64,000 nucleotides of DNA from an uncultured Verrucomicrobiae bacterium (GCA_963764165.1 CAVXRD010000001.1:192001-256000), one strand, 5' to 3'; shown: positions 2,295 through 24,409, counted from the stretch's first letter. The notes: generated by a model from the sequence alone, not told the origin. Numbers and translations: made by a program.

Positions 2295-2672
2295 TTGACA
2301 CTGTGTGACGGCCAGTCCTGGCAACCCATTTCAGACTGCCTTCGGAAATCCACTTTCGAAATTGACCGTCGGCATACAAACCGCAGGCACTATCACTTCC
2401 TTTTTACAGGACGCCCGGTCCGCGCGGTCTCGGTCAAAACCTGCATTACGCTCAAGGTTCGTTGGGAAGAGTTGGGCGGCGGCTTTGCCCATGTCAGCGA
2501 GTCCAATCCCGCTCTCAACGGCGTGAATTGCATCACCAAATGCTTGGAACATGAGCTGAGCAGGGACGATTGCTACGAGTCGGCCAAGTTCGGCGGCGGA
2601 ACCTGTGACCTGATGCTGTCCAAGGCGGTTTGGAAGGCTTCCAACCACGCCCGCCGACAGACGGGCCGTTGA
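2295..2672 (+). pseudogene. 5'-truncated HUH Rep-like gene (third, remnant unit)
   Basis: RRHYHFL, WEELGGG and YESAKF align with 9667..10185 and 17274..18128. Motif I is missing and the motif III Tyr is replaced (NCITK versus AYITK). Confidence 0.75.
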
Positions 2673-2726
2673 GCACGCGGCACAAAGTCCCGCCCATGCG
2701 TGATGGGGCACTTGCCCCCGGTGATG

Positions 2727-2883
2727 GCTTGAAGATCCACTATGTCCACGCCCGGTCAACCACCTGGCGCTCGGATGCCAGAAGCCTTGCCGACACGGCT
2801 AAAAAGGAAAATTGCCACGCCCTGCGTGGCCCTGCGCATCCCCCTTCCCAAACAACTAGCCCAGCGGCAATGAGCGATTCAAA
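2727..2883. repeat. Conserved ~160-bp non-coding block, copy 1
   Basis: GCTTGAAGA.CCACTATGT...CCCAAACAACTAGCCCAGCGGCAATGAGCGATTCAAA; near-identical copies at 10288-10448 and 18235-18395. Confidence 0.9.
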
Positions 2884-2959: not shown

Positions 2960-3292
2960 TCACGGTCCAGGCCATTTTAAACGTTCTCTTAGAGATTCGG
3001 GGACGATCTTGAAAAGTTCCTTGATGCAATTTGTAATAGGACTATGGAGGGCATGAGCAGGATTATTTCCGCGCTCGTAGAAAATTCGAGCTTGTGAATT
3101 CAGCCAGTCAATATCGTACTCCGTAAAGTCGGCATTAAGCAATAGTCGTGGCAGATTATGCACCAATTCCATTTCAGGGTAGAGGGAACCATACGTAAAG
3201 CGTTTCCACGCCGTGTGAGTTTGCAAATTCCGCATCGCCGGAAGCATCCGATCAAGAATTCCAAGATAAAGTTCCTGTTTTTGCGTTAACAT
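2960..3292 (-). CDS. Putative immunity protein for the ParB-like toxin tip
   Basis: 110-aa lower-GC ORF starting 7 bp after the toxin stop. Positional inference only. Confidence 0.65.
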   Translation of the reverse strand: MLTQKQELYLGILDRMLPAMRNLQTHTAWKRFTYGSLYPEMELVHNLPRLLLNADFTEYDIDWLNSQARIFYERGNNPAHALHSPITNCIKELFKIVPESLRERLKWPGP

Positions 3293-3299
3293 GCGAGCC

Positions 3300-4283
3300 T
3301 TATGGTTGCGTCATCTTATAGGTCGTCGATGGAGAGCCTTGGTCCCAGCTTCCTGTGCTTAGAAAATCGTTTATGTATTTCGGATTGCCCGTCTTCGCGT
3401 AAAACATTAACGCAGCCGTCATCCGGTGATTTCCTTCGCTGATAATATAACGATTACCGCTTTTGTAGCCGCCAATCGTCGGGATAGCCGAACGGTCCTT
3501 GGGCGTGCTGCCGTACTCAGAAGGAACATTTCTCACGGGTTTTCCCGCAGCCATATCTTCTAGCAATTGCGGAATTTGATCAAACTTCTGCGCATCCAAA
3601 CCAGATTGCATTGATTCAACATCGACCCCGGGAGGAGCTTGGACTTCAAGCGGGAATTGGGGCGGCGGCACCGGGACGTTTGCTGATGGTGGTTGCGCCC
3701 CTGCATTTTGCACAGCAGTTGCATATCTGAAACCCATGTTCACCCCCCAAAGAGCAGTAACAATCATGGTGGCCGAAGCGACTTTTTGGTTGTAAGTAGC
3801 ATTCGGACTTAAGAGTATCGGGCCAAAGGCCCCAACGCCATAACCTGCACCAAATGCGCTCGCACCGGCAGCAAAACCCGGGAAAGCCACCCCTAGTGGG
3901 CCAAGCACTCCGCCAACACCTGCGCCGATTAAAACTTCTTGAAGCGTAACTACTCGACCTTGAGCCTCAGCATTAACCCCTGCGGATAGTCCTCCGATGG
4001 TAGCGCCGATTCCAACTGAAACTAGCACGTCGGCTAAGTCATGCCCACTGGGGTCCATGTGATTTGCCGGATTGGCTTCGCAGTAGAGGTATTTATGAAG
4101 GCCCAACGGGTCGGTTTGGGTGCCCTCGTCGGTATCCATCGTGATACCGGCGACGTATGCGATTTTTCCCGCCGAAGCCCCGGCGTCGTAGGCCCCCTGG
4201 CCCGCCCGCGTGAGCGCGTGCGCGTTGGACGGGGAAAGCCCGCCCAGGAGAACGGCTAAAAGAATGGACAGCCAGCGATGCAC
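3300..4283 (-). CDS. Signal peptide + Rhs core C-terminal motif + Gly-rich segment + ParB/Srx-like toxin tip
   Basis: GTG start at 4283, by comparison with 11840. Contains RWLSILLAVLLGGLSPSNAHA, MDTDEG..LHKYLYCEANPANHMDPSG and YIISEGNHRMTAA. Confidence 0.8.
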   Translation of the reverse strand: MHRWLSILLAVLLGGLSPSNAHALTRAGQGAYDAGASAGKIAYVAGITMDTDEGTQTDPLGLHKYLYCEANPANHMDPSGHDLADVLVSVGIGATIGGLSAGVNAEAQGRVVTLQEVLIGAGVGGVLGPLGVAFPGFAAGASAFGAGYGVGAFGPILLSPNATYNQKVASATMIVTALWGVNMGFRYATAVQNAGAQPPSANVPVPPPQFPLEVQAPPGVDVESMQSGLDAQKFDQIPQLLEDMAAGKPVRNVPSEYGSTPKDRSAIPTIGGYKSGNRYIISEGNHRMTAALMFYAKTGNPKYINDFLSTGSWDQGSPSTTYKMTQP

Positions 4284-4329
4284 GTCGGCGGCGATTTTAC
4301 GGGGAGAACGGCCCGGAGGCGAGGCTGAT

Positions 4330-5526
4330 TTATTCCCCCTCGGCCAGAGCCTCGGCGTCCAGCGCGGCCAGCAACTCAGCCCTGGCCGTGAGATCGACGG
4401 CGGGTGCGGCTGCGCCTGGCGTGGTTTCCGGCGCGTTGCTCGGCGCGATAAAGTTGAACTCCGCTTGCGCATCCGGCGCGGCGGTTGCGCTCTCAGGAGT
4501 GGGTGCCTGTTCGCTGTGATTGGGTGAAGGCTCCGCCTTCATTTTAGCGGGATGAAAACGATCATGCACCAACTTGAGATGGGCGATGGCGACATGGGTG
4601 TACACGCGCGTGCTCTCCAAAGAGGAATGACCGAGCATGGCCTGGATGTAGCGAATGTCGCAGCCCGCCTCCAAAAGCTGCGTGGCCATCGTGTGGCGGA
4701 ACAAGTGGCAACTGCCCCGGCGCGTGATGCCGGCGGCGCGAAAGATGTAGCGCACCTGCGAGCCAAGCCGGTTGGGATTGACTCGCACGCCCTTGGTATT
4801 CACGAACACGGCGGATTCGGCCACGGCGGAACAAAGCAGCGGTCGCGCTTCCAGCAGGTATTTTTCCAGCCACTGCAAGGCCCGCTCGCCAATCGGCACC
4901 ACCCGGTCTTTGCCGCCCTTGCCCTGCTCAATCCAGACAAAGCCCCGGTCAAAGTCCACGTCGCCTTTGTTGAGTTGACAGAGTTCGGCCCGGCGCATTC
5001 CGGTCGAATAGAGGACTTCCAGCGCGGCCCGGTTGCGCAACCCGGTGGGCTTGGCGAGATCAGGCACGTTCAACACCGATTCGATTTCAGCGGGCGAAAG
5101 CAGCGCATGGGGCAAACGCCGCGAGGTGCGCCCGTACTCGAGATCGCTGGCCGGATTGTAAAGTATAAGGCTTTGCTTGGTCAGCCAGCCGAAAAAACTG
5201 GCGATGATGCTGACGGCGTGATTCTGCGTCTCGACCGCCAGCGGCTCGCCGTCCTTTTTCCGGTAGTGGTAAAGGTAGGACTGATAATTGAAGATGACGG
5301 CGCGTGTGACCTGGCGGGCCTGGGTCAGCCCGGCCTGCTCGCAGAACGAACGGAAGGGCCGCAGCATTTTGCTGCGCGTGTAAACCGTCTGCGGCGAAAA
5401 GTGATGCACGCGCAAGTGTTCCAGGTAGCGGGCCATGAGGTAAAGCAGCCCCTGCGGGTCTTCATGCTCGGAAGGCTTATGACGCGACAGGTCTTGCTCG
5501 GCTAGATGGGCGTAATAGGTTCTCAC
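4330..5526 (-). CDS. Tyrosine recombinase (XerC/D-like), copy A
   Basis: LYSTGMRRAEL, GKGGKDR, HLFRH and LGHSSLESTRVYT: full catalytic set. Confidence 0.95.
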   Translation of the reverse strand: MRTYYAHLAEQDLSRHKPSEHEDPQGLLYLMARYLEHLRVHHFSPQTVYTRSKMLRPFRSFCEQAGLTQARQVTRAVIFNYQSYLYHYRKKDGEPLAVETQNHAVSIIASFFGWLTKQSLILYNPASDLEYGRTSRRLPHALLSPAEIESVLNVPDLAKPTGLRNRAALEVLYSTGMRRAELCQLNKGDVDFDRGFVWIEQGKGGKDRVVPIGERALQWLEKYLLEARPLLCSAVAESAVFVNTKGVRVNPNRLGSQVRYIFRAAGITRRGSCHLFRHTMATQLLEAGCDIRYIQAMLGHSSLESTRVYTHVAIAHLKLVHDRFHPAKMKAEPSPNHSEQAPTPESATAAPDAQAEFNFIAPSNAPETTPGAAAPAVDLTARAELLAALDAEALAEGE

Positions 5527-5658
5527 CGTTTTTTCTTTAGTTGTCCTCTCTTACGGCTGTTAAACCACTAACAACTAAAGAGATAAGAGCGTCACGGACG
5601 GCTGACGATTTCATGACGAAGCGTGACGAAAGATGTTTTTGGGATGACGATTTCCCCT

Positions 5659-8496
5659 TCATGCTGACGATTTCTCTTCGTAGCCGGGCATGTCCGCCGA
5701 CTGCGGCTCCGGCCCGGTGTAGGCCAGTTCATAAGTGAAGCGGGCGGCGGTGCCTGGCAGCCGATGGCACAGGACGTATTCGAGGCTGACCAGCCGTTCC
5801 AGATGGCGGCGCACCTGCGCTTCGCCCCATTTCAACTGCTCGCGCATCTCGCGCCGGGTGAGCCGGACGCGCTCCGATGGCATTTTCTTTTCCTCAGCCA
5901 CTTTCTTGACCAGGCTGTGCAACACCGAAAGGAAGGCCCGCGTCGGCGGCGCCAGTTCGTCCAGGCTGCGCCCCATCACGCCCGCCGCCAGTTGCTGCGC
6001 CTGGCGCAAGTCCTCCTGATCGGCCTCGATGTATTGCACCACCTGGCCCCGGTGCTCGCAGCTTTTGACCGGCTTCTGGAACTGGCGCAAAAAGGCAATG
6101 GCCCGGATGAGTCCAAGATATTTCTTGTGGTCGCGGCGCAGGCGCAGGCGGTCGCTCGGAAAGCGCAGCGTCTCGGCAAACGGGATAATCACTTTCAGCG
6201 GTCGCAACAGCCGTTGGGCCGCGTGATGGGTCGCCAGCACGGCTTGCTTGTCGAGCCTGGAGAGCAGGCCCCGGAGCGTTTCGCTCTGGCGCTGGGCGTC
6301 GTGGATGCGCTGCGTTTGCTCGCGCTCCTCGTCCACCGAAAGCACCAAAAAGCGGTTGGCCAGCTCCTCGTCGAACTCGGCCTGCGTGCTGGTCATGAAC
6401 TGCGCCACCGGGCCTTCCACCGTTTTCAACTGCGTGCGCGGCATTCCGCCGTCCGGGTCTTTGACCGTCACGGCCAGCACCAGCTTTTTCTCGCTCTGCA
6501 AAATCTTGAGCGGATAGGCGGCGCTCTGGCTGCCCTCGTCCTCAACGACCGCCAGAACCTTGTGCTTCAACCCGTTTTCGGGAAGATAAAACAACGCCTG
6601 GGTGGTCATGGCCGTCAATGCCTCCTTGTCCTCGTCGGGCACAAAGTCAAGTATAGCGTTCAAGAGCGAGGATTTTCCGGCGGCGCTGCGGGCCACGATG
6701 AGGCCGGAAAGCGGGTCGTCCAGCTTGCGGCTGATGGCGATGAGGTAGCCCAAAAGCTTGTTGGTGTCCTCGCCCACCGTCCCGGCCAGCGCGAAGTCGG
6801 CCACGATGCGTTCCAAAAGCTTCGGCTCGCGCAACAGGGCCAGCGCCTTCATTTCCTCCTCCGGCGTCATGACGGGTGCGCCGGTGGCCGTGGCTTTCAT
6901 GCGTTCGATGATCTGCTTTTGCTGGTGTTCCTCCACCCGCACCAGGAGCTTGCTCAACTCGGCTTCGACGGTGTTCTTGTCCAGCCCGGCGACCTGCGCG
7001 GCCACGCTGGCAAAGCTGGCGCGGGCGCGGGCCTGGTAAAGATCGAGCGTGTCAACGTGCATGGCGTCATGCCGGATGAGGCGCAGATTGACCTTGAGGC
7101 TGTCAAAACTCGTATTGCTTGACAGTCCCCGGACGCGATAGACGCGGTCGCCTGCGCAGAGTTCGGCCACGCCATCGGGCAACATCTGAAAGCAAGCGGT
7201 GCTTGCATCCATTGCGCCTGATGGCGCAGGCGCTGCGCCGTTGCGTTCCGGCGTGTGTGCGCCGTTTGCTGACAGTGGCGCGATTTTCGGTGCCTGCAGA
7301 TCCACTGCGCCTGGCGGCGCGGGTTGGGCTGCGATTGCCTGGGCCGGTTCCGGCTCGGCTAAAGGAACAACCTGAATGGCGCTGACAACGTTCACCGGCA
7401 GCAGGCGGTAACTCTTGGCAAAGCATGAGGCCAGATCGCCTTTGGCGTCCTTGGATTGCCTCACCAAATCGTTGGCATCGGACTGGCGCGGCCATTCCAC
7501 CCGCCACGCCTCGATGCCCGCCGCTTCCAACTGGTGCGCCAGTTCGTTGGCGGCCGTGTTGCCTGGCTCGTCGCTGTCATAGCAGATCGTCACCCGGTCG
7601 GGACGGCACGCTTTCAACAGTTCCCAATGGCCGGGCGTGAACCCCCGGACGCCATAGCTCCAGGTCACGCTCTCGAACCCGTGGACGTAAAGGCTCAAGG
7701 CGTCAATGGCCGCTTCGCACAAAAGCCATTCGCGTTTGCCATGCAGTCCCGCCGCGTTCCACACCCCGCTGTGCTTTCCCGGCAGGTAAAGGTGCGGGCA
7801 GGCGTTGCGCACGGGCGCGGTGATGCGCCGCCCATACATTTCGCCGATGCCAGCCGTGGTGAGGACCGGGAACACGACGCATCCGGTCAGGTGCTCGTGG
7901 CCGCTCTCGCGCAGGATGCCCAGCCGCTGCAGCCGGTCGCGCAACGCCTTTCCCGCGCTCGTCCCTTCGGGCGGCAGCCGGTAGGCCAGCGTGCGGTTGG
8001 CGTAACCCAAACGAAAATGTTTGACAGATTCGGGGTGAAAGCAGCCCCGCTTTTGCAGGTATTGCATGGCGGCGGGCTGGTTCAAAAAGGTCTGGTGGTA
8101 AAAGTCGGCCACGCGCAAGAGCAGTTGGGCGTCGGTCACTTCCTCGCCGTCGCCGACCAGGCTGGCGTATTGCTTGCCCGATTTCGTTTTGACAGTCCCG
8201 GCCAGCGGCGTCCTGCCCTCCATTTCCAGCAGCCGCTCCACCGCCCGGCGGAAGGCGATTTTCTCCAGGCGCATGACCAGGTCAATGACGCTGCCCCCGC
8301 CGCAGCCAGCCAGGCAGTTCCACAGGTTTTTCTCCGGCGTGACGATGAACGAGGGTGTTTCGTCCTGATGGAACGGGCAGCGCGCCGCCAGGTCTTTGCC
8401 GTGCTTCTCCAGCTTGAGGCCGTAATGCTCGCAGAGGCGGGTCAGCGCAAACTCCGTTTTGAGCCGGGCCACTTCCTGTTCGCTAATCCATTTCAT
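5659..8496 (-). CDS. DNA primase: CHC2 zinc finger + TOPRIM + P-loop NTPase/helicase-like domain, copy A
   Basis: CPFH...CLAGC zinc finger, CEAAIDA and YDSDEPG TOPRIM motifs, ARSAAGKS Walker A. Start set at MKWISE by comparison with copy B. Confidence 0.92.
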   Translation of the reverse strand: MKWISEQEVARLKTEFALTRLCEHYGLKLEKHGKDLAARCPFHQDETPSFIVTPEKNLWNCLAGCGGGSVIDLVMRLEKIAFRRAVERLLEMEGRTPLAGTVKTKSGKQYASLVGDGEEVTDAQLLLRVADFYHQTFLNQPAAMQYLQKRGCFHPESVKHFRLGYANRTLAYRLPPEGTSAGKALRDRLQRLGILRESGHEHLTGCVVFPVLTTAGIGEMYGRRITAPVRNACPHLYLPGKHSGVWNAAGLHGKREWLLCEAAIDALSLYVHGFESVTWSYGVRGFTPGHWELLKACRPDRVTICYDSDEPGNTAANELAHQLEAAGIEAWRVEWPRQSDANDLVRQSKDAKGDLASCFAKSYRLLPVNVVSAIQVVPLAEPEPAQAIAAQPAPPGAVDLQAPKIAPLSANGAHTPERNGAAPAPSGAMDASTACFQMLPDGVAELCAGDRVYRVRGLSSNTSFDSLKVNLRLIRHDAMHVDTLDLYQARARASFASVAAQVAGLDKNTVEAELSKLLVRVEEHQQKQIIERMKATATGAPVMTPEEEMKALALLREPKLLERIVADFALAGTVGEDTNKLLGYLIAISRKLDDPLSGLIVARSAAGKSSLLNAILDFVPDEDKEALTAMTTQALFYLPENGLKHKVLAVVEDEGSQSAAYPLKILQSEKKLVLAVTVKDPDGGMPRTQLKTVEGPVAQFMTSTQAEFDEELANRFLVLSVDEEREQTQRIHDAQRQSETLRGLLSRLDKQAVLATHHAAQRLLRPLKVIIPFAETLRFPSDRLRLRRDHKKYLGLIRAIAFLRQFQKPVKSCEHRGQVVQYIEADQEDLRQAQQLAAGVMGRSLDELAPPTRAFLSVLHSLVKKVAEEKKMPSERVRLTRREMREQLKWGEAQVRRHLERLVSLEYVLCHRLPGTAARFTYELAYTGPEPQSADMPGYEEKSSA

Positions 8497-8918
8497 GGTG
8501 CTTGCGCACGGCCACCATTGAAGGAAACCCATTCGCCGGTTTTCGGGTTCCAGCATCCCCGCAGCCCGTCGGTGTCAAGAAGATGATGCCAGCGTCTTTC
8601 AGCGGTCGCGGGCGAACGGAGCGCGAGCTTGATCATGCGCTGGCCCCGGTCGTACCAGCCGCAGAGTGATTTAAGCCGGTCGTCCCATCCGTGCTGATAG
8701 GCTTCGCGCACGGTCAACCGTCCCAAGGCCGCCAGTTCCTTGCCCACGCCCGCCGCCAGCGCGTCCCGCTCCCAATCGTCCCAGGGATAATGGCCGTAAC
8801 TGCATTCGAGGACTTCCGAACCGAAGATGTCCAGCGGTCGCCGGAACTTTTTCATGGTGGGCCGTGGTCTGGCCAAACCCGTCAAGCCTGTTTCGGAAGA
8901 TTTTGACATGAGGCGCAT
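8493..8918 (-). CDS. Hypothetical protein, copy A
   Basis: Stop overlaps the primase start (ATGA). Protein is identical to 16101..16526. Confidence 0.7.
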   Translation of the reverse strand: MRLMSKSSETGLTGLARPRPTMKKFRRPLDIFGSEVLECSYGHYPWDDWERDALAAGVGKELAALGRLTVREAYQHGWDDRLKSLCGWYDRGQRMIKLALRSPATAERRWHHLLDTDGLRGCWNPKTGEWVSFNGGRAQAP

Positions 8919-8927
8919 TTAGCGGTA

Positions 8928-8958
8928 TTTCGTATAACTGTGCAAGCACTTTCGTATA
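8928..8958. promoter_or_regulatory. Candidate operator in the divergent promoter between the primase operon and the XRE gene
   Basis: TTTCGTATA direct repeat at 8928 and 8950 (22-bp spacing); also present in unit B. Confidence 0.4.
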
Positions 8959-8987
8959 TTTCGCCAGATTGCCTTTATGATTCGGAG

Positions 8988-9359
8988 ATGACAACGGGAC
9001 GACCCGCATCGAAACCCCGCACTGTGTTGGGCCAGCGCATCTCCGAGGCTCGCCAGTTGGCTGGCCTGACTCAGCAGGCACTTGCCGACAAGGTCAACGT
9101 GTCTCAGCGCGTGATCGCCTACTGGGAGCGCGAAGCTGTTTCTTTGAGGGCAGACCAAATTAATGCTCTTGCCAGTGCGCTCAATGTGACGGCAGATGCT
9201 CTCCTGGGGCGCAAAGCCCCTCGCGGCGGCGGGCCGGTCGGAAAAGCACGGCGCATGTTTGAAGAAGTAAATAAACTGCCGCGTGACCGACAACAGCATG
9301 TTCTGCGCGTGGTCGAAGATCTGTTGAAAGCCAACCGTCCTGAAAAAGCAGCCGCTTAA
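8988..9359 (+). CDS. XRE-family HTH transcriptional regulator, copy A
   Basis: LGQRISEARQLAGLTQQALADKVNVSQRVIAYWE. Confidence 0.92.
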   Translation: MTTGRPASKPRTVLGQRISEARQLAGLTQQALADKVNVSQRVIAYWEREAVSLRADQINALASALNVTADALLGRKAPRGGGPVGKARRMFEEVNKLPRDRQQHVLRVVEDLLKANRPEKAAA

Positions 9360-9666
9360 ACGCCCGCCCCGTCCCCCGGGCAGTGGCGGAGTAGTGGGCG
9401 GATTCTGGGCGAGTAGTCAAGGATTGTGGCCCTGCCGCTTGACGGTCTGCCGGGCCTGTGCCATTGTCTCACCGTTGGAGCGATTGAAGAACGGCTTTGG
9501 TGTGTTTCCTTGGACGCCCGCGAGCGTCAGGTAAAGTTGTGATGCGTTTCTAAGTCTCCTCTCTTGTGTGGCCCGTGCGGCCTTTTCCCCGTTGGGGTTT
9601 TTTAACTGTTGGTTTCCAGCCTGGGCGCGGGTGCGTCCGGGCCTTGGTGACCCGCCGACTCGTGTG

Positions 9667-10185
9667 ATGCAAACGCCCGAAGCCTATCAGATTGGACGCA
9701 TTGGCTGGCAACTCTTTGGCACGCTGACTTTCAAGTCCGAGCGCCTGCCGGAAAGAGTTCGCCTGGCCATGTGGTTCGCTTATGCCCGTCAAACCGGCAA
9801 AAGGCTTGGGGTCAAGTTTCACCGCCTCCTGTGGTGCCTGCGCCAGGAACAAGGCGAGATCGGCGGACGCAGGCATTTTCATTATTTGATGGCAGAGCTT
9901 CCCCATGAGCAACTCTGCCCGGCGCTGAACTTCGAGCTGATGGCCCTCTGGCAATCGCTCGGCGGCGGCTGGGCCAGGGTGGCGCGTTACCGCAACGACC
10001 TCGACGGCGTCGGCTACGTGCTCAAGGGCCTGGGCTACGCTTCCGAAGCGGAGCAGCATTACGAGATGCGCAAGTTCGGAAGCCAGCGCTGCCACCTCAT
10101 TCTGTCGAACTCGGTGTGGCGCACCCTCCATCGAGCAAACCTCGGACGCCATCGCTCAGCGGCGGCTTCCGGGGCCATTCGGTAA
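9667..10185 (+). CDS. HUH endonuclease / rolling-circle Rep-like protein, allele A
   Basis: Motif I FGTLTF, motif II RHFHYL and motif III YVLK, in Rep order. Confidence 0.75.
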   Translation: MQTPEAYQIGRIGWQLFGTLTFKSERLPERVRLAMWFAYARQTGKRLGVKFHRLLWCLRQEQGEIGGRRHFHYLMAELPHEQLCPALNFELMALWQSLGGGWARVARYRNDLDGVGYVLKGLGYASEAEQHYEMRKFGSQRCHLILSNSVWRTLHRANLGRHRSAAASGAIR

Positions 10186-10287
10186 CAGAGAGGCCGTCGG
10201 GCACAACCTTGGGCAATCGCTCAGTTGTGACACTTCGAGCGGGCCCTGCCGGGGGAGCGGCGCGTCAGCGCCGCCCCCCGGCGGGTT

Positions 10288-10448
10288 GCTTGAAGACCCA
10301 CTATGTACAGACCCGGTCAACCACCCTGGCGGTCGGATGCCAAAAGCCTGGCCGACACGGCTAAAAAGGAAAATGGCCACGCCCTTGCGTGGCCCTGCTC
10401 ACCCCCCATTCCCAAACAACTAGCCCAGCGGCAATGAGCGATTCAAAA
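10288..10448. repeat. Conserved ~160-bp non-coding block, copy 2, preceded by a GC hairpin at 10245-10285
   Basis: Direct comparison with 2727-2883 and 18235-18395. Confidence 0.9.
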
Positions 10449-10467
10449 TCCGGCGCGAAGCGTCCGA

Positions 10468-11840: not shown

Positions 11841-11901
11841 GATGCGGGCGATTTTAACGGGAAGAGCCGAATGGTTGCGAGCGGATTATTTGAGCGGGCC
11901 G

Positions 11902-16104: not shown

Positions 16105-16526
16105 GGTGCTTGCGCACGGCCACCATTAAAGGAAACCCATTCGCCGGTTTTCGGGTTCCAGCATCCCCGCAGCCCGTCGGTGTCAAGAAGATGATGCCAG
16201 CGTCTTTCAGCGGTCGCGGGCGAACGGAGCGCGAGCTTGATCATGCGCTGGCCCCGGTCGTACCAGCCGCAGAGGGATTTAAGCCGGTCGTCCCATCCGT
16301 GCTGATAGGCTTCGCGCACGGTCAACCGTCCCAAGGCCGCCAGTTCCTTGCCCACGCCCGCCGCCAGCGCGTCCCGCTCCCAATCGTCCCAGGGATAATG
16401 GCCGTAACTGCATTCGAGGACTTCCGAACCGAAGATGTCCAGCGGTCGCCGGAACTTTTTCATGGTGGGCCGTGGTCTGGCCAAACCCGTCAAGCCTGTT
16501 TCGGAAGATTTTGACATGAGGCGCAT
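16101..16526 (-). CDS. Hypothetical protein, copy B
   Basis: Identical protein to 8493..8918. Confidence 0.7.
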   Translation of the reverse strand: MRLMSKSSETGLTGLARPRPTMKKFRRPLDIFGSEVLECSYGHYPWDDWERDALAAGVGKELAALGRLTVREAYQHGWDDRLKSLCGWYDRGQRMIKLALRSPATAERRWHHLLDTDGLRGCWNPKTGEWVSFNGGRAQAP

Positions 16527-16595
16527 TTAGCGGTATTTCGTATAACTGTGCAAGCACTTTCGTATATTTCGCCAGATTGCCTTTATGATTCGGAG

Positions 16596-16967
16596 ATGAC
16601 AACGGGACGACCCGCATCGAAACCCCGCACTGTGTTGGGCCAGCGTATCTCCGAGGCTCGCCAGTTGGCTGGCCTGACTCAGCAGGCACTTGCCGACAAG
16701 GTCAACGTGTCTCAGCGCGTGATCGCCTACTGGGAGCGCGAAGCTGTTTCTTTGAGGGCAGACCAAATTAATGCTCTTGCCAGTGCGCTCAATGTGACGG
16801 CAGATGCTCTCCTGGGGCGCAAAGCCCCTCGCGGCGGCGGGCCGGTCGGAAAAGCACGGCGCATGTTTGAAGAAGTAAATAAACTGCCGCGTGACCGACA
16901 ACAGCATGTTCTGCGCGTGGTCGAAGATCTGTTGAAAGCCAACCGTCCTGAAAAAGCAGCCGCTTAA
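16596..16967 (+). CDS. XRE-family HTH regulator, copy B
   Basis: Identical protein to copy A. Confidence 0.92.
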   Translation: MTTGRPASKPRTVLGQRISEARQLAGLTQQALADKVNVSQRVIAYWEREAVSLRADQINALASALNVTADALLGRKAPRGGGPVGKARRMFEEVNKLPRDRQQHVLRVVEDLLKANRPEKAAA

Positions 16968-17273
16968 ACGCCCGCCCCGTTCCCGAGCAGTGGCGAGCAG
17001 TGGGCGGATTCTGGGCGAGTAGTGAAAGGATGGTGGCCCCGCCGCTTGACGGTCTGCCGGGCCTGTGCGATTGTCCCACCGTTGGAGCGATTGAAAACGG
17101 CTTTGATGTGATTCCTTGGACGCCCGCGAGCGTCAGGTAAAGTTGTGATGCGTTTCTAAGTCTCCTCTCTTGTGTGGCCCGTGCGGCCTTTTCCCCGTTG
17201 GGGTTTTTAACTGTTGGTTTCCAGCCTGGGGCGCGTGTGCGCCTTGGGCCGGAACCATTCGCATTGCCGTTTT

Positions 17274-18128
17274 ATGCTCGCGCCTTTTGAAGTTATTGGC
17301 CACCGCGTCCAGGCCGCCGCCGGACACGGCGCTTTGTCGTTTGAACGGGTGCTGGTCCTGGCGGACGCGGACCCGTTCTGCCCGTTGCGCCAGACAGTGG
17401 ATTACGCCCTGTCGCCGGATGAGGCCGGGCTTCCCGCTGGCCAGTGGCTGGGCCGCGTCCTGCTCCTGGGCATCCATGACATGGCCACCGGCTACGGCGG
17501 GCGCTTGCGCTTCGAGGGCCGCATCATGGGGGCGCAAACTCAGCGCGAGAACCTGGCGGCGCTGCCCGCCCCGGCCCACACCGGCACGCCCCGCCGCCGT
17601 TCCTTGGAAAGCCCCGATCTGCTCATGCTCTGCGGCGAGGCCTGGCAGTTCTTTGGCACGCTCACCTTCAAGCAGGAGCGGCTGCCGGAGCGCGTGCGCC
17701 AGTCCATGTTCAACGCCGCCTTCCGCCAACTGGCCAAAGAACTGCATCTCTATTTTCCCCGTTTGGCCTGGTGCCGCCGGGAAGAGCTGGGCGAGCAGTT
17801 GGGGCGGCGGCATTATCACTTTCTGTTGACAGGACTCCCGGCCCGGGCCGCGAACATCTCCACCTGCTTTTTTCTCATGCACGCATGGGAGAAGATCGGC
17901 GGCGGGATGGCGCGTGTCCGGCTGTACAACCAGGGGCAGGACGGCCTGGCGTACATCACGAAGTGCCTCCACGGCGGCGACGCCTACGAGACTTCCAAGT
18001 TCGCGGAGGGCCTGTCACACCTCACGCTCTCAGACGGGTTGCAGCGCATGTTGCGCTCCCGTCCAGTGATGGGAGAGAGGCGTCTTGCACAACGCGACAC
18101 GCCGACAGCGGGCGGCTTTCCTGCGTAG
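17274..18128 (+). CDS. HUH Rep-like protein, allele B, with an extra ~105-aa N-terminal region
   Basis: FGTLTF, RHYHFL and YITK motifs; ATG at 17274. Confidence 0.75.
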   Translation: MLAPFEVIGHRVQAAAGHGALSFERVLVLADADPFCPLRQTVDYALSPDEAGLPAGQWLGRVLLLGIHDMATGYGGRLRFEGRIMGAQTQRENLAALPAPAHTGTPRRRSLESPDLLMLCGEAWQFFGTLTFKQERLPERVRQSMFNAAFRQLAKELHLYFPRLAWCRREELGEQLGRRHYHFLLTGLPARAANISTCFFLMHAWEKIGGGMARVRLYNQGQDGLAYITKCLHGGDAYETSKFAEGLSHLTLSDGLQRMLRSRPVMGERRLAQRDTPTAGGFPA

Positions 18129-18234
18129 GGAAACGCTCTCTGGCAGCAAGGCCAATGGCCGGTTGTGACTTCCAAGCGGTTCCTGGGGGGCGGGCGGAGC
18201 GGCGCGTCAGCGCCGCTCGCCCGTCCCACAGGTT

Positions 18235-18395
18235 GCTTGAAGACCCACTATGTACACACCCGGTCAACCACCCTGGCGGTCGGATGCCAAAAGCCGGACC
18301 CAGCACGGCTAAAAAGGAAAATTGCCACGCCCTGCGTGGCCCTGCTCATCCCCCATTCCCAAACAACTAGCCCAGCGGCAATGAGCGATTCAAAA
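18235..18395. repeat. Conserved ~160-bp non-coding block, copy 3, preceded by a GC hairpin at ~18186-18228
   Basis: Direct comparison with the other two copies. Confidence 0.9.
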
Positions 18396-18438
18396 ATGGC
18401 GCGAACAAGTCGAAAATCAAACGGCTTATGTTTGACGG

Positions 18439-18981
18439 TCAACCGCCAAGACTTTTTGCCAGTTGAGCCACTCGATAGTCTTCCATCAGGCTGAGGCAAA
18501 CTTCCTCCATCGGTGGAAAGTCTATTGTAAACAAAGGTCGCAGGGCGTTGGCAAAATCAGGTAAGGTCAAATCGCCAAAGCCAGTGGCCAACGCCGTTAA
18601 GGTCACTTTTTTAGCTGCCAGTTCCGCCGCCATCCGCAAAGCCGTGGCAATGGTTTCTTGAACGCTTTCCGGCGTCGCGTGATACCAGCCGTCCACCGCC
18701 ACCGCATGAAGCACCGCCTTATAGGGAAGCTCCGACCCGGAATACGCAATCACTTCACCGAACCGGGCGGCGCGTGGCGTCCGTCCTGCAATGACCTTGT
18801 GCAATTCGGCCTGCATCCGTGGCCCATATCGCCCCAGCAAATCCGCCCCCACGCCGCCGGAAAGATTCAACGAGACGTTGGCCGAGCAAATCAGCACGTC
18901 CGCTGGCTCGTCCAAAATGTTGCACGCCTTTAACGTCCATCTGATGAACTTCGGCTGAAAAGTTGCGGTCGCTGCTTGCAA
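18439..18981 (-). CDS. Macro domain protein (ADP-ribose binding/hydrolase fold)
   Basis: ADVLICSANVSLNLSGGVGADL, VLHAV and TALATGFG match macrodomain signatures. Confidence 0.85.
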   Translation of the reverse strand: MQAATATFQPKFIRWTLKACNILDEPADVLICSANVSLNLSGGVGADLLGRYGPRMQAELHKVIAGRTPRAARFGEVIAYSGSELPYKAVLHAVAVDGWYHATPESVQETIATALRMAAELAAKKVTLTALATGFGDLTLPDFANALRPLFTIDFPPMEEVCLSLMEDYRVAQLAKSLGG

Positions 18982-19299
18982 TTAGCCCTCAACCGCAAAA
19001 GTGATGGTTTTGACCGCTTCAGTCAGAACAACAGCTTGCGTTGAGCGAGCAACCCCCGCCGTTTGCCCCTTGGCCAACTTGAGAACAATGTGGCTGAATG
19101 GCTCGCCCGGATTTTCAGATTCCCGAAACCCAACCTCTGCGTCGTCAGGGACATCAAGCACCGACCCAATTTGTACCCCCGACGGAACCAATGCGGCTGG
19201 CAGCAGAATGGTTACTGGCTCATTAGCCGTTAGCCGCAGTCCCTTCGGCCAGCCAAACGCTTTGTTTGACTCAATCTGAACTGTGCGGGCTTGATTCAT
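18982..19299 (-). CDS. Hypothetical protein, putative orphan immunity
   Basis: Translationally abutting ORF in the post-toxin cassette. Confidence 0.6.
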   Translation of the reverse strand: MNQARTVQIESNKAFGWPKGLRLTANEPVTILLPAALVPSGVQIGSVLDVPDDAEVGFRESENPGEPFSHIVLKLAKGQTAGVARSTQAVVLTEAVKTITFAVEG

Positions 19300-19491
19300 T
19301 TAATTGCCTCCCGAAAGATACCGTATATCATCCGGCATCACTCCCTGTTGTTGCGTGACATACTCTGTCCAAAATGACCTTGGAAATTCTTGCACATTCG
19401 ACAATTTGGACGGACTGACAACTGCTGCTGCGCCAATATTCTGACTGCTCCCGGCGAGATCATCAATGGATGCCTGCTGTAACTTTGTCAA
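19300..19491 (-). pseudogene. Possible remnant of the 3' end of a toxin tip
   Basis: Short ORF with no convincing start, ending immediately before 18982..19299. Confidence 0.35.
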
Positions 19492-20413
19492 CCTCGAGTC
19501 CCTTTAACAGCTTCGGTGCAACATCAAAAAACCTTCGAATAAAAATTATCGCGTAATCACACGCGCTTTCCACCTCGTCATTTGTAAGATACTCCCATTC
19601 CGTCGGTCCGACCCCAAGCCATGAACAAAAAGATATATTCTGTTGCATGGACAAACACTTGCTGTATGTACCCTTCGTGGCTGGAAATAAAAACATATTC
19701 TCGCTGAAAATATCGTGGGAATATTCAATCACCGCATCATCTCGACCAAAGTGAAAATTTGTGCTTACAATCCATCCTCCAATACTTGTTTCAAAATGTG
19801 GCTCTGGATCATTAAGCTGCCAGTCTAATATCCTTTGGTTTTTAAATGTGCTTCTGAATTTTCCCAACATCTGCTTACGGAGCATTTTCCTGCTGGCGAA
19901 GCTGATTTTTTCGCCAGCAGCTCGTCGTGCCGCAATTTGCTCTTCAAATGTTTGAGGAATGGAGGCAACAATAGGCTCAATTTTTGACAGAATGGCGTTA
20001 TCATCGTCCACGTAGATTTCCCCGATGAATTTCTCAAAATCCGGCCGACACATCTGAAATACCGTTAGCGCCTCGGCTGCTTTTCCCTCTCTTTTGAGCC
20101 GTAGCACGTGCCGATATAGCCCTTTGATTCGAAAAATATTATCACACTGCAACAGCAAAAGCTCGTCACTTTGAGAACACTTATCGCCCAAGTCCTGAAC
20201 CACGTTACAAAAATTTCTCCTAAGAAGTCCATCAATCAAGGTCAACTGCTGCGTCCTGTTCAGTTGTGTAATAAATTGACTTACCTCCCAAACGATCCCG
20301 GACTTAAACAACCGAAGATTGGAAAACGACAAGTCAATCTCGTTCCGCCATTCACTGGCAGCCCATAAGTAAAATCGAACTTGAAACTCGCGGCGCGCTT
20401 CTGAAAACGTCAT
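19463..20413 (-). CDS. Putative immunity protein for the Rhs REase-fold tip
   Basis: Low-GC 316-aa ORF (MTFSEARREF) starting 16 bp after the rhs stop. Confidence 0.65.
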   Translation of the reverse strand: MTFSEARREFQVRFYLWAASEWRNEIDLSFSNLRLFKSGIVWEVSQFITQLNRTQQLTLIDGLLRRNFCNVVQDLGDKCSQSDELLLLQCDNIFRIKGLYRHVLRLKREGKAAEALTVFQMCRPDFEKFIGEIYVDDDNAILSKIEPIVASIPQTFEEQIAARRAAGEKISFASRKMLRKQMLGKFRSTFKNQRILDWQLNDPEPHFETSIGGWIVSTNFHFGRDDAVIEYSHDIFSENMFLFPATKGTYSKCLSMQQNISFCSWLGVGPTEWEYLTNDEVESACDYAIIFIRRFFDVAPKLLKGLEVDKVTAGIH

Positions 20414-20429
20414 ACGGATCTCGGCTGGC

Positions 20430-23400
20430 TCATGGGGCTCCCTCCTCAGCAGTCTCGGCTGCAATTCCCTCTGAATCTTCGATGTCGGCCCCTTGTGCTC
20501 GCGTTGTGGACGATGCAAACTTTTGCGAAACTGATTGCAGTGAATTATATGTGATCAACCCCAATACCGGCGGCGTGACCACCACAAAGAATGGCGGCAC
20601 AGGAACGGTAAAGCTGAGCGGTGGAGTATACTCAGCAGCGCTTCCCACATGCCAGCCGCCCTGTGGATCTATCGCTTTAAACACTACCATGTATCCTGCA
20701 AGCTGAGCTGCGCCCGCCAACAGTCCTTTAGCGTTTCCAGGTTTTATTTCGAAGACTGATTTTTGCTCCACGTTAACCAGATCGGGCAACGCTTGTTCAA
20801 TTAAGCGAGCCTTACCCAATAGTTTAAGGGCTCTCAGAATAGACTTGCCAGTAAGACCATTTAACTCTCCAAACTTGCGCCGAAAATCCGCCATGATAAC
20901 TTTTTCCACCGCTTTCCCAAAAATTGCAGCCGGGCTGTTTCCCGATGTTGAAGACGCCGCAAATCCCGACAGGTCAGTCATATTGACGGGGTCGGCTTGG
21001 CAATAGATATATTTATGAAGCGACAGCGGACCTTCGTTATCCCCTTCGTCGGTATCCATCGTCCAAAACCTACCGAGTTTTGGGTCATAATTGCGGGCGC
21101 GGAGGTAGTATTGCTGCAAGTCCGGGTCCCATTGCTGACCGGTGTAGCGGTAGTTGCTTATCGTGCTGTCGGTGCTGTTGAGCAGGTTGGCCTCGTTCCC
21201 CACCGCGTCATAGGTGTAACTGGTCACGTTCGGCGAAGAAATCGTGCTGTTGGTCACGAACGCCAGCCGCCCAAGATAATCGTAGGCATATTCCAAACTC
21301 ACATCCGCCGTGCTCGAGTTGGTCGCCGGCCCGTTGGTTGTGATCGGCACGGTCAAAAAGCCCGAGATGCTCAGAATGTGGTTATCGGGTGTCCATGTAT
21401 AACTCAACTCTTCCAAGTCGTACATCGAAGCTTTCTGCGTTAGGCGATTGAGCCCGTCGTAATTGTAACTGTACGATTGCGTGGTAACGCCGCCCACCTT
21501 GACCGTCACGCTGCTGCGCTGCCCGCCAGCGGTATAGGTGTAAGTCTCCACCGTGTTGGTTTCACCCGCGTTGATCGGAGGGAGCGATTTCGTGGCCATC
21601 CGGCCCATCACGTCCTCGGTCGTAACGATGGTTTTGCCTCGGAAATCGGTCACGGAAGTTTGCTGGACATTGATGCTTGAGCCGTTGGTCAGAGGCACAT
21701 CGGCGTAGGCGGTGATTTCAGTAGAACCGTCCGGCAAAATTCTCGCGGTGCGGCGGCTCAACGCGTCATATTCGTATTGCGTCAGATTCCCATTGGCGTC
21801 GCTCTGCGAAAGCTGGTTGCCGCGCTCGTCATAGGTGTACTGGTAGGTCAGTTGACCGGAAGAAGCTGTGTCCAGGATGACTGAGGTCAGCAATCCACGG
21901 TAATCGTAGGTGTAGGCAGTCTTAACTCCCGCCTCGTCTGTCGTCCCAATTTTGTTCCCGGCCCCGTCATACGCAATGGCCGTCTGATGGCGCGTCCCGT
22001 CGGCCAGCACGGGATACGTCGTCAATATCAGCCGATTGGCCGTGTCATAGAGGTAATCGGTCTTGTTCGTTTTGGCATCGATCATTTCGATCTGGTTGCC
22101 ATTGGGGTCGTAAAAATACTGCGTCGAGTTCGTGCCGCCGGTGGGCGCGATGGTTTGATTGATGCTCGACAGGTTCACCGTGTAATTGGTGTAAACCAGC
22201 ACGTTGGTGCGGCGTCCGGCGGCATCGTAATTGTATTGCGTGACGTTGCCATTGGCGGCCATGGAATATTGCACACGGCCGGCCAGATCATAGACCGTCC
22301 GCGTAAAGGACACAAGCGTTCCCGCAGCCGTGTTGGTCATTCCGTAAATCGTGTCCGCGCCCGAGCGGGTGATCAAACTTGAGTTGATCGCCTTGGCCAA
22401 AATCACACCCGAAAGCCGCTCCATGCAAACGACCCGCCCTGCTCCGTCGTAAACATTCAAGCTCGCGGCATTGGTGGTCGCGCCGCCGGTGCCAGGCACC
22501 GACCGATCTTGCGTGTAAAGAACATGATTCAACTCGTCATACGTCATGCGCGACACCGTCCCGTCCGGATACGCCGTTTCGATCAAATTCCCCGCCGCGT
22601 CGTAGGTGTTGGTGGTGGAGCGATTGTCCACGTCCGTCGTGATGTAGGGATGCCCGGCGTGGTCATAAATGGTCGTGTTGGTGCGGCCAATCGGATCAAT
22701 TGTGGCCACCAGGCGATTCTCCGCGTCATATTGGTATTGCGTCACGATGGGCGTGTTCGGAACGCCATTGACGGTCGCCGTCGTGGTCTCGGAAGTCCGA
22801 TTGCCGTTGGCGTCGTAAGTGTAACTGGTGGTCGAGACAGGCATCCCGCTGCCGGACGGCCATTGCTGGGTCATGGACGCGACTTCGCCGGAACTGTTCG
22901 GCTGCGGCTGGCCGCTGCCGGGATAATAGGTGTAGGAGGTCGTCACCGGATATGACACGCCTGGCGATTGCTGCGTCGAGCTGGCCACCAACCCGCCCGC
23001 CGCCACCCCGTTGATTCCCATGATCACCGGCGCGTAAGTCATCGACGATTGCGAACCCGTCGGATCCTGCGATTGCAGCAGATTGCCGTTGGACTGATCG
23101 TAAACATTGGTCGTGCCGTTGCCATTGGCGTCCGTTGAGAGGGTCGGCTGCCCCATCACGTTCAACTGCACCGACGTCGAATTTCCCAGCGCATCCGATT
23201 GGCTGATGGGCCGGTTCAAATAATCATAACCTGTCGATTGCGTATTGCCATAGCTGTCTGTTTGCGCTGTGACATTGCCCTTTGAATCATACGTATAAGC
23301 CGTGCCCAAATAGCCGGGTGCGGTGATCGGTTGCAGCACGGCGCCCACAGCGCCCGAGGATGTATAATTGACGGTCACCGTCTGGTTCGTCCCACTGACA

Positions 23401-24407
23401 GTCTTGGTAACGAGTTGTGTTTGGTTGGTCGGATTATAACTGTACGCAGATGTGCGCAGCAACGCGTCAAATTGGTTGGACAGGGTTCCGTCGTTAGCGG
23501 GAGAATACACGTTGCTCACGGTCATAATGCCGCGCCCGTCAAACACCTGCGTAAGGCGATTACAATTCGGATTAGCGTTGGTTCCATAGGAGTAAGTGGT
23601 AATTTCATAGGTTCCAAGCACGCGATCCACCAGCTTATCCACCTCAGTGAGAAGCCCATTCGTTGGATTGCCCTGAACGAAATATCTGACCGCATAATTG
23701 GTTGAGGACGTTCCACCTGAAAGGTTCCCAGCAGCTTGAACACTATCAGACACATTAATCCATGTTCCCGAAGCATTAGTCGCATAATTGAATTGAATCG
23801 ACTTGCCGCAAGAATGTTGCATGGCGATCAGCCGATTCAGAGCGTCGTAATAGTATGTTACCGAATTGCTATTGGCATCAATGATTTGGCGGAGTCCCCA
23901 CGTTGGTCCGCCGTTGATCAGGAAAAATTGATATAATGTCCCTGCGGTTGTCGCGTAGTTGAACGTGTCGGGCGCAAACGGCGTGTCATCTTCCGGATCG
24001 ACCGTTAGAGAGAAAGGATGGCTGTCCCAGGTATCCCCAATATCAGAAACGCCAAGATAGAGTGTCGAACTGGCAGAATAGCTACAGGTCAGAGTGCCCT
24101 CGTTCAAATAGCAGGGCTGCAGTGTCAGCGGGATTCCATTGTCGGGGGCATCTTGAACAGATCCCAAGGTGGGCGCAAATACAGCCGTTCCGCCGCCCGG
24201 GAGCGTGATCGTAATCATGTGACTCGTTGATTCAGCCGCAATATCATCCGAAAGTTGATCTAAACCCGCCTGGATCCACCCCGTGGCCAGATTGCCGTTG
24301 GCGATCGTCAATGTCGCCGTGTTCCAAGAAGGAGTCCATCCAATTCCCAAATCTGAGGGGCTATTCGTGTATTGACTGGTATAGGAGCGCGCAATTGCAA
24401 GCGGCAA
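20430..24407 (-). CDS. Rhs/YD-repeat protein, 5'-truncated, with a PD-(D/E)XK nuclease-like tip
   Basis: Many YD repeats; core YRYTGQQWDPDLQQYYLRARNYDPKLGRFWTMD..PVNMTDLSG; tip LPDLVN..VFEIKP..QL..Y. Confidence 0.92.
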   Translation of the reverse strand: MPLAIARSYTSQYTNSPSDLGIGWTPSWNTATLTIANGNLATGWIQAGLDQLSDDIAAESTSHMITITLPGGGTAVFAPTLGSVQDAPDNGIPLTLQPCYLNEGTLTCSYSASSTLYLGVSDIGDTWDSHPFSLTVDPEDDTPFAPDTFNYATTAGTLYQFFLINGGPTWGLRQIIDANSNSVTYYYDALNRLIAMQHSCGKSIQFNYATNASGTWINVSDSVQAAGNLSGGTSSTNYAVRYFVQGNPTNGLLTEVDKLVDRVLGTYEITTYSYGTNANPNCNRLTQVFDGRGIMTVSNVYSPANDGTLSNQFDALLRTSAYSYNPTNQTQLVTKTVSGTNQTVTVNYTSSGAVGAVLQPITAPGYLGTAYTYDSKGNVTAQTDSYGNTQSTGYDYLNRPISQSDALGNSTSVQLNVMGQPTLSTDANGNGTTNVYDQSNGNLLQSQDPTGSQSSMTYAPVIMGINGVAAGGLVASSTQQSPGVSYPVTTSYTYYPGSGQPQPNSSGEVASMTQQWPSGSGMPVSTTSYTYDANGNRTSETTTATVNGVPNTPIVTQYQYDAENRLVATIDPIGRTNTTIYDHAGHPYITTDVDNRSTTNTYDAAGNLIETAYPDGTVSRMTYDELNHVLYTQDRSVPGTGGATTNAASLNVYDGAGRVVCMERLSGVILAKAINSSLITRSGADTIYGMTNTAAGTLVSFTRTVYDLAGRVQYSMAANGNVTQYNYDAAGRRTNVLVYTNYTVNLSSINQTIAPTGGTNSTQYFYDPNGNQIEMIDAKTNKTDYLYDTANRLILTTYPVLADGTRHQTAIAYDGAGNKIGTTDEAGVKTAYTYDYRGLLTSVILDTASSGQLTYQYTYDERGNQLSQSDANGNLTQYEYDALSRRTARILPDGSTEITAYADVPLTNGSSINVQQTSVTDFRGKTIVTTEDVMGRMATKSLPPINAGETNTVETYTYTAGGQRSSVTVKVGGVTTQSYSYNYDGLNRLTQKASMYDLEELSYTWTPDNHILSISGFLTVPITTNGPATNSSTADVSLEYAYDYLGRLAFVTNSTISSPNVTSYTYDAVGNEANLLNSTDSTISNYRYTGQQWDPDLQQYYLRARNYDPKLGRFWTMDTDEGDNEGPLSLHKYIYCQADPVNMTDLSGFAASSTSGNSPAAIFGKAVEKVIMADFRRKFGELNGLTGKSILRALKLLGKARLIEQALPDLVNVEQKSVFEIKPGNAKGLLAGAAQLAGYMVVFKAIDPQGGWHVGSAAEYTPPLSFTVPVPPFFVVVTPPVLGLITYNSLQSVSQKFASSTTRAQGADIEDSEGIAAETAEEGAP

Positions 24408-24409
24408 GC

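Follow-up and report, generated by a model that had tools for sequence, protein, structure and literature searches.

The exchange of C-terminal toxin domains (tips) by Rhs and contact-dependent growth inhibition (CDI) toxins, and the location of the predicted tip pool, have been open questions since 2009-2011. Here we describe tandem integrative elements at an rhs gene of an uncultured Verrucomicrobiae bacterium, at positions 2,295 to 24,407 of a 64,000-nucleotide stretch of DNA (GCA_963764165.1, CAVXRD010000001.1:192001-256000; called the window). The closest described process is C-terminal displacement, in which one crossover integrates a circle of core and tip and moves the previous tip downstream; the same work predicted that tips exist in an episomal pool (Jackson et al. 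2009, PMC2935791). The elements described here differ in that recombinase and replicase are their own and the crossover falls at a fixed point. Orphan cdiA-CT/cdiI and rhs-CT/rhsI modules with homology from VENN onward were described by Poole et al. (2011, PMC3150448), who found upstream homology sometimes absent, reported modules running from VENN to VENN, and called the mechanism unknown. The main text of that paper contains no mention of a recombinase or primase, and elements of the present kind would explain its VENN-to-VENN modules. Homologous recombination was invoked for tip exchange by Koskiniemi et al. (2014, PMC3967940) and in a 2023 study (PMC10539506), and XerC/D genes were noted beside polyimmunity loci by Zhang et al. 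(2012, PMC3482391).

By sequence comparison, the units in the window are members of a widespread family of small integrative elements, and we consider it quite probable that the encoded recombinase performs site-specific tip displacement. The original prediction, made from the window alone, held that each unit is a site-specific element whose circular form carries its own tip and immunity gene. This model proved largely right and more general than stated.

In an integron, an ordered array arises as a tyrosine recombinase adds circular cassettes at a single site. The window elements probably form such a recombinase-built array as well, but each unit brings its own integrase and replicase in place of integrase-free cassettes, the site lies inside coding sequence, and the integrase failed the integron integrase model (TIGR02249, 123 bits against a cut-off of 265). 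Phage-inducible chromosomal islands (PICI), P4-like satellites and other integrative elements with a replication module measure 7-10 kb and carry an integrase, a divergent XRE regulator and a primase-helicase. Size and gene set are common to the elements here, which differ in their MCM-like helicase, in their toxin-gene target and in replacing the 3' end of the target by one that encodes a different domain. No transfer or capsid genes and no terminase or AlpA-type gene were seen in the units, and none of 11 scanned proteins matched a packaging or capsid-redirecting PHROG. In the shufflon, Rci inverts resident segments and switches the C-termini of PilV; the present elements probably also use a tyrosine recombinase to swap the C-terminal tip of a surface protein, but here whole replicons would be inserted or excised. 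Recombinase-linked carriers of effector and immunity genes are also known from Vibrio cholerae Aux3, the gamma-mobile-trio (PMC7721734, 10.1101/2023.03.28.534373) and polyimmunity loci (PMC3482391). These are reported to add whole genes or immunity arrays and are not known to fuse a tip onto a resident toxin gene. In full-text searches of main texts, chiefly outside the subscription journals and judged mostly from titles and the opening of abstracts, no description of the element was found, and a prior mention elsewhere is possible. Term matches for the element's genes were negative in the main texts of PMC5131962, PMC4758244, PMC11481896, PMC8138268, PMC6336857, PMC11606950, PMC6287321, PMC10210955 and PMC4428218.

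Tandem Units in the Window

Self-comparison of the window revealed one 5.67-kb repeat (4036-9635 against 11593-17241, 93.4% identity) and a block of 170-260 bp in three copies (18150-18405, 10211-10473 and 2715-2907). Read along the minus strand, a truncated rhs with tip1 is followed by a putative immunity gene, the fragment of a fourth tip with its own open reading frame (ORF), a macro-domain gene and the block. Then come Rep and XRE genes (both on the plus strand), a hypothetical gene, a primase, a recombinase, an arm of ~140 bp, tip2 and its immunity gene. After this the backbone is repeated, with tip3, an immunity gene, the block, a Rep remnant and an IS110 insertion sequence. The features are as follows.

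20430-24407, minus: host rhs, 5'-truncated, 1,325 aa, fused to tip1 (RHS repeats, TIGR03696)
21052-21062, minus: left junction, attL-like (rhs DNA, spacer ACGATG, right arm; the rhs side has no matching half of the inverted repeat)
11700-21062, minus: element 1, 9,363 bp (junction copies)
19463-20518, minus: putative tip1 immunity gene (by position only: adjacent and co-oriented; no family match)
19300-19491, minus: fourth toxin tip, C-terminal fragment (58 aa, 91% identical to the C-terminus of leader-tip protein P0138)
18982-19299, minus: ORF of 105 aa, likely the immunity gene belonging to this fragment of a fourth tip (by position only)
18439-18981, minus: macro-domain cargo gene (PF01661, E 2.5e-12)
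18150-18405, no strand: conserved non-coding block 1, long hairpin beside the Rep stop (three copies)
17214-18128, plus: HUH-type Rep-like gene 1 (PF23343, E 1e-5, below cut-off; HYH and YxxK motifs visible in the sequence)
16548-16967, plus: XRE repressor 1 (PF01381)
16101-16526, minus: hypothetical gene 1 (no family match; identical protein in unit 2)
13246-16104, minus: primase-helicase 1 (CHC2 zinc finger and Toprim by Pfam; C-terminal MCM-like AAA+ fold)
11902-13113, minus: XerC-like tyrosine recombinase 1 (NF002331/PRK01287)
11700-11840, minus: element arm with a 47-codon signal-peptide-like leader in frame with tip2 (from the sequence)
11688-11705, minus: junction 2, GGTATC-ACGATG-GATACC (perfect 6-bp inverted repeat, 6-bp spacer)
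4143-11699, minus: element 2, 7,557 bp (junction copies)
10959-11699, minus: tip2, half core and HExxH-bearing domain (72-73% to the tip of RHS-repeat protein P0140)
10468-10962, minus: putative immunity gene 2, membrane protein (by position only)
10211-10473, no strand: conserved block 2 (self-comparison)
9568-10185, plus: Rep-like gene 2 (43% to Rep 1)
8940-9359, plus: XRE repressor 2 (family match)
8493-8918, minus: hypothetical gene 2 (protein identical to that of hypothetical gene 1)
5659-8556, minus: primase-helicase 2 (93% to copy 1)
4330-5526, minus: XerC-like recombinase 2 (92% to copy 1)
4143-4283, minus: second element arm with its leader, in frame with tip3 (from the sequence)
4131-4148, minus: junction 3, GGTATC-ACGATG-GATACC (from the sequence)
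3300-4142, minus: tip3, half core and probable ParB/sulfiredoxin-like domain (structure model)
2960-3292, minus: putative immunity gene 3 (by position only)
2715-2907, no strand: conserved block 3 (self-comparison)
2337-2651, plus: Rep remnant from a deleted third element (34-44% identical to the Reps by tblastn)

The tandem array predicted for this locus was thus recovered by self-comparison, by Pfam and NCBIfam gene calls (integrase, CHC2/Toprim primase, XRE, RHS repeats and, for Rep, a weak REP_ORF2-G2P match) and by exact junction copies. The backbones, predicted to be nearly identical, are 94-100% identical in most 250-bp bins from XRE to integrase. They are nevertheless mosaic: one primase bin falls to 85%, and the Reps share 43% of their residues. 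Element 1 carries extra cargo in the fourth-tip fragment, its likely immunity gene and the macro-domain gene. A core lies downstream of the integrase in both units, at 205 and 190 bp from the stop instead of the predicted ~0.25 kb. The expected remnant of a third unit is present and retains its tip, immunity gene, block and Rep remnant, beyond which IS110 begins. A long G+C hairpin at 18156-18240, at the end of Rep 1 (DNA fold z -4.25), has a shorter version in block 2 and is a candidate origin or terminator. An Rfam scan of the window from 2 to 25 kb gave no match at E 0.1.

Junctions and Recombination Sites

The 11-mer ACGATGGATAC occurs at 21052-21062, 11689-11699 and 4132-4142, and the spacing of its copies reproduces exactly the predicted unit sizes of 9,363 and 7,557 bp. 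The same distances separate the three copies of ACGATGGATACC that mark the unit ends, so that a short direct repeat, identical over 12 bp, is common to the three junctions. Recombinase core sites typically consist of an inverted repeat around a short spacer. The element-side junction, GGTATC-ACGATG-GATACC, has this geometry, with a perfect 6-bp inverted repeat flanking a 6-bp spacer, whereas the rhs-side junction is without the left arm and shares sequence with the element side only from the first base of the spacer onward. In the genome of the window, 6e-4 of positions have a perfect inverted repeat with this geometry, and the 18-mer itself occurs only twice.

The geometry recurred in relatives. 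At the start of homology, the inverted repeat matched at 6/6 positions in five of six arm junctions of the close clade and at 5/6 in all nine E. coli and all three Enterobacter junctions, compared with 0-1/6 on three host-side junctions. Three close relatives from metagenomes (integrase 88-90% identical) showed the same junction ~190-200 bp beyond the integrase, and each of them carries a different tip. Within a clade, every junction lay on the identical base. Ralstonia GMI1000 has the layout rhs-imm-xerC-tip with a degraded junction.

Empty and Filled Alleles in E. coli

Of 5,426 complete E. coli genomes, 54 contain a close copy of one recombinase of the family. Seven of eight inspected genomes showed the order rhs-tip-immunity-symE-XRE-primase-xerC-arm-half core-tip, once or twice, at two rhs loci; the eighth (L115) has a broken element. 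All arm junctions fell on the Asp codon of DPIG. A search with two displaced tips yielded five candidate alleles, and all five were element-free, with that tip fused to rhs, at a precise empty site. The empty and filled locus is ansP-vgrG-rhs-pptA.

Compared with the empty alleles L198 and L199, the filled allele L111 contains a 7,928-bp insert, with 2 mismatches in the 3 kb upstream and, downstream from the Asp codon, 100% and 99.99% identity over 13,042 bp. Because the GAT of the empty allele stays with the displaced tip and the filled rhs has GAC, the switch is located within 2 bp. The empty alleles L196, L197 and L200 differed from L113 by 7,789 bp, and L197 differed from L108 and L109 by 16.6-16.7 kb; in both comparisons the switch lay within 15 bp. 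Since the strains are related, these are two allele sets and not five events. The rhs-fused tip of L111 is the displaced tip of L112 at another rhs locus, with identity starting from the Asp codon. These alleles, together with the junction geometry, support the predicted insertion at the Rhs core, and the displacement of tips is further supported by the finding of the same tips both Rhs-fused and behind element arms. A truncated symE follows the immunity genes in L108-L114 and L196-L200, also in element-free alleles, and may represent scars of earlier elements at the E. coli rhs loci.

CDI Loci and Possible Circular Forms

On the Enterobacter plasmid L027, three tandem units lie behind cdiA. 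There, cdiA and the element-displaced tips share just 13-14 bp, which are the VENN codons, the junction has an inverted repeat of 6-7/8 around GTTGAG, and the leader encoded by the arm contains a lipobox-like motif, as read from the sequence. A Pseudomonas plasmid has a similar layout behind tpsA2 with a shared word of 10 bp.

Circular single-unit contigs exist as well. Three of 79 metagenome loci were whole contigs with terminal repeats of 100-127 bp and one complete unit (9,601, 9,663 and 7,509 bp), and two of the three had a recognizable half core. They may be free circles or collapsed repeats. The 9,601-bp contig (L040) has an extra ORF that by eye resembles a TIR/CAP12-type defence gene.

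Two deposited small "plasmids", L025 and L026, encode the module. L026 holds one and a half units. In L025 the integrase of one unit is joined to the tip of the next, and it matches E. coli chromosomes from primase to primase; L113 compared with L108 shows a similar loss. An L025-like circle would keep a usable arm-core site and could thus offer a route for pairing backbones with new tips. A joint in peat metagenome reads that linked junctions 1 and 2 was rejected as evidence of a circle, since it encodes the core of another element (the P0129 peptide).

Breadth of the Family and Its Targets

Among 8,000 scored candidates, 3,747 matched the recombinase at E 1e-60, and family loci came from records of Verrucomicrobiota, Proteobacteria, Spirochaetes and Nitrospira. 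A primase was located upstream in 61 of the 62 loci that had sufficient sequence on that side. The second half of the Rhs core was sought with a profile for which 16 cores of the collected loci served as seeds; this half core was detected in 31 of 92 family loci, with all 39 matches on the integrase strand, and in none of 79 IMG/VR loci of unrelated integrases (1.13 Mb) used as control. The IMG/VR search gave one family-like match and otherwise these distant integrases; no match to the integrase at E 1e-50 was obtained in 50,697 phage records.

As to the expectation that the integrases consistently end beside an Rhs core, the profile detected a core within 3 kb downstream for only 20 of 61 integrase copies (those with at least 1 kb of downstream DNA). 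By eye, cores missed by the profile were seen in L032, L060, L075, L082 and L092, and other loci carry other tip-like ORFs. Where the integrase has no core beside it, 48 downstream ORFs were compared with Pfam, which recognized few toxin domains in them. As judged from these sequences, the targets of the family are not limited to Rhs and include the VENN codons of CdiA, and many members are without a detected core.

Several variants were observed. In Variovorax and Rhodoferax (L005, L008 and L009), the displaced tip-like ORFs directly after the arm share the motif AFGNALG and probably represent a third class of target gene. In L003 and the Leptospira plasmid matches H27 and H30-H32, a Leptospiraceae primase-recombinase pair is followed by parA/parB, which suggests use as a plasmid replicon without a toxin target. 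Homologues of ~650-685 aa (P0008, P0010-P0014, P0035, P0042, P0064, P0065 and P0083) may consist of two recombinase domains each, and L093 has two recombinase genes side by side.

Element Genes

The recombinase scored above the cut-off of NCBIfam NF002331 (PRK01287; 399.5 against 371 bits), and its catalytic residues R182, K207, H278, R281, H304 and Y313 were invariant in 30 sequences, as for an intact recombinase. It failed the XerC and XerD equivalog models (227.5 against 335.15 and 225 against 329.6 bits) and the GmtY model (23.6 against 340). For the C-terminal 522 residues of the primase, a structure model with a confidence (pLDDT) of 84 was obtained. All Foldseek matches listed for it were MCM helicase subunits, the best with E 6.5e-10 and a TM score of about 0.4. 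Atlas neighbours of the primase carry PF27228, and a sequence search of the PDB with the helicase profile gave no match. From the model, the protein would be a primase-helicase replicase, and integrase, divergent regulator and primase-helicase together make up a satellite-like gene set. The units are without a Pfam relaxase and have the HUH-type Rep.

A TrwC relaxase lies outside the units at 31886-34675. It belongs to a mobilisable island beside the rhs locus, with a TrwC-type relaxase-helicase and a ParA-like cluster (31488-34675, minus strand, and 41531-44077, plus strand), which could be a candidate transfer helper for circles. Further neighbours are a transposase in two frames, read from the six-frame translation and presumably IS630-like (25570-26890, minus strand), and an AbiEi-like/AbiEii type IV toxin-antitoxin pair (26939-28619, plus strand). 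On the other side, a CRISPR array with cas genes occupies window positions 1-600 and C1:175400-192600 and ends near the IS110 at 1077-2165; the neighbouring genes are csb/cas3/cas4-cas1-like, and we take them to be type I-G-like.

Host rhs and Toxin Tips

With YD/RHS repeats, the associated core and a variable tip, the locus has the composition of an Rhs polymorphic toxin. The rhs ORF (20430-24407) matches with 74% identity the middle of an intact paralogue of 5,264 aa, C1:158250-174044, located ~30 kb away in the same genome, and its start adjoins a reversed fragment of another tyrosine recombinase. For both reasons we regard the window rhs as 5'-truncated. The recombinase fragment is C-terminal (24372-24821, plus strand) and stands back-to-back with the truncated start; the boundary is probably a deletion junction with the neighbouring mobile region. 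The paralogue, an Rhs/YD protein ~18-34 kb before the window, has its own tip and immunity gene. Downstream of it lies an orphan Rhs fragment with a Hint-AHH tip, whose core reads ACAATA instead of ACGATG and which has no element.

All three tips start with the second half of TIGR03696. Tip1 is 40% identical to P0129, which itself reaches the Tox-REase-9 cut-off, and by this homology tip1 is restriction-endonuclease-like. Protein P0140 is a fused form of tip2, joined to RHS repeats, and the tip of P0122 is 74% identical to an Rhs-fused orphan in the genome of the window. For tip3, the model (pLDDT 90) placed ParB/Srx-family chains in the top VIA-align rows with weak Z values of 3.8-5.3, and Foldseek returned nothing at E 0.001; the modelled domain is probably ParB/sulfiredoxin-like. 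Based on these hints from homologues and folds, the tips are putative toxins and their neighbours putative immunity genes.

Element Leader

A signal-peptide-like leader, encoded by the element arm, runs in frame into the displaced tip; a fusion of this kind is new here. Searching with residues 1-85 of the tip2 ORF retrieved 18 more proteins, all joined at GI|TMD. A hydrophobic leader was present in 17 of these 18 (18 counting the window's own protein), in a search that favours in-frame cases. Some tips of the leader proteins contain Pfam domains (AHH, Hint, GIY-YIG, REase-9 and metallopeptidase). The leader frame was open in all six DNA copies. In a codon test of these copies, synonymous changes were not in excess. 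The arm in E. coli contains stop codons in the leader frame, and E. coli arms lack a leader. Because the search selects in-frame cases, synonymous bias is absent and E. coli arms are leaderless, a real function of the leader is about evenly balanced with its absence as judged from the sequences.

Discussion

In the mechanism proposed here, a circle with arm, spacer, half core, tip and immunity gene and the host gene would recombine at the spacer's left edge, and catalysis would be by the element's own recombinase. The host rhs or cdiA would acquire the new tip in frame, at a fixed codon directly preceding the toxin tip, and the old tip with its immunity gene would end up intact behind the arm. 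Recognition would have to rest on core and arm, since beyond the right edge of the spacer the DNA encodes toxin and varies. The primase-helicase, and in the window units perhaps also the HUH Rep, would replicate the excised circle, and the leader might let displaced or circle-borne tips be secreted. Repeated integration would build arrays, and excision would reverse it. The order of an array was read in the original prediction as a chronological record; arrival times may be derived from it in this way, but backbone-to-backbone recombination also reshuffles arrays. Likewise, the proposal that integration re-arms the host Rhs is doubtful for the window locus, where with a truncated host gene a swap probably no longer arms a working Rhs.

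Several findings weigh against this explanation. The window rhs lacks the N-terminal part of its paralogue and is not a full-length scaffold, and no empty allele of the window's own locus was found among 40 related genomes. The E. coli allele pairs do not tell integration from excision, and the spacer differs between the two ends of the L111 element, which a strict lambda-type reaction would not allow. The mismatch suggests single strand exchange, and, speculatively, it would be tolerated if the junction were then resolved by replication. The position of the junction within the Rhs core varies between clades, the Pseudomonas junction has no inverted repeat (2/6), L030 has only 4/6, and six of the nine E. 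coli junctions have another repeat that scores equal or better. The half-core profile was partly seeded from the loci that it scored, only 20 of 61 integrase copies have a detected core nearby, and in L003 the integrase is followed by parA/parB and not by a toxin core. With respect to circles, the contigs with terminal repeats may be collapsed repeats, and L025 was rejected as a clean excised element because backbone homologous recombination or assembly explains it better. In four peat metagenomes the backbones were covered and the tips hardly, with short pieces of relatives and no informative joint.

Alternative explanations account for parts of these data. Homologous recombination over the conserved core is the published model (PMC2935791, PMC3967940, PMC10539506); the primase-integrase module would then be a passenger plasmid or satellite travelling on the same circle. 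The same arrays do hold orphans with long rhs fragments and backbone-to-backbone exchanges. Homologous recombination predicts variable core lengths, whereas the junctions of a clade fall on the same base, one allele set narrows the switch to 2 bp and the other to 15 bp, and the VENN version shares only 13-14 bp; we consider it very unlikely as the main route. The site-specific step could also be performed by a host recombinase such as XerCD, leaving the enzyme of the element with another job, for example resolution of circle dimers. The 6-bp spacer and the tolerated spacer mismatch resemble XerCD-exploiting elements, and the enzyme is labelled XerC. Yet the junctions are wholly different by clade (ACGATG, GACCCG, GTTGAG) and track the toxin motif, they are unlike the dif sequence quoted in PMC10210955, and the catalytic positions of the enzyme are all conserved, which makes a host enzyme highly improbable. 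An assembly artefact as the source of the tandem is the least credible of all. The units differ in Rep, tip and backbone, the genome has just 5 contigs, and the same layout recurs in complete E. coli chromosomes and in independent metagenomes.

A further reading shares all mechanics with the explanation favoured here and differs only in who benefits. The elements may be selfish, with the toxin motif as a safe landing site, the tips acquired on excision, the altered host weapon a by-product, and the tip-immunity pairs serving mainly as addiction modules. Toxin-antitoxin or SymE genes in many members point in this direction, as do the truncated window rhs, the frameshifts in several E. coli rhs or vgrG genes and the many loci without a detected core. 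Intact rhs-tip fusions in both filled and empty E. coli alleles, and the great diversity of the tips, speak for tip exchange of use to the host, so that we hold the selfish reading to be somewhat unlikely.

On balance, we lean toward the view that undescribed, self-replicating elements of several phyla are the missing vehicle and the episomal reservoir of tips. In this proposal, clade-specific recombinases would read pre-toxin motifs (DP/DT in Rhs, VENN in CdiA) and graft tip and immunity gene in one step, and several clades would add a leader that keeps displaced or circle-borne tips expressible. An element with its own recombinase would explain why junctions are nearly free of homology, why the old immunity gene survives a swap, and why identical tips occur at different loci. 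With sequenced empty and filled alleles and a site mapped to a few bases, the E. coli carriers make the proposal directly testable. If it is true, a large family of compact recombinases, mostly annotated as XerC or XerD, would have clade-specific targets.

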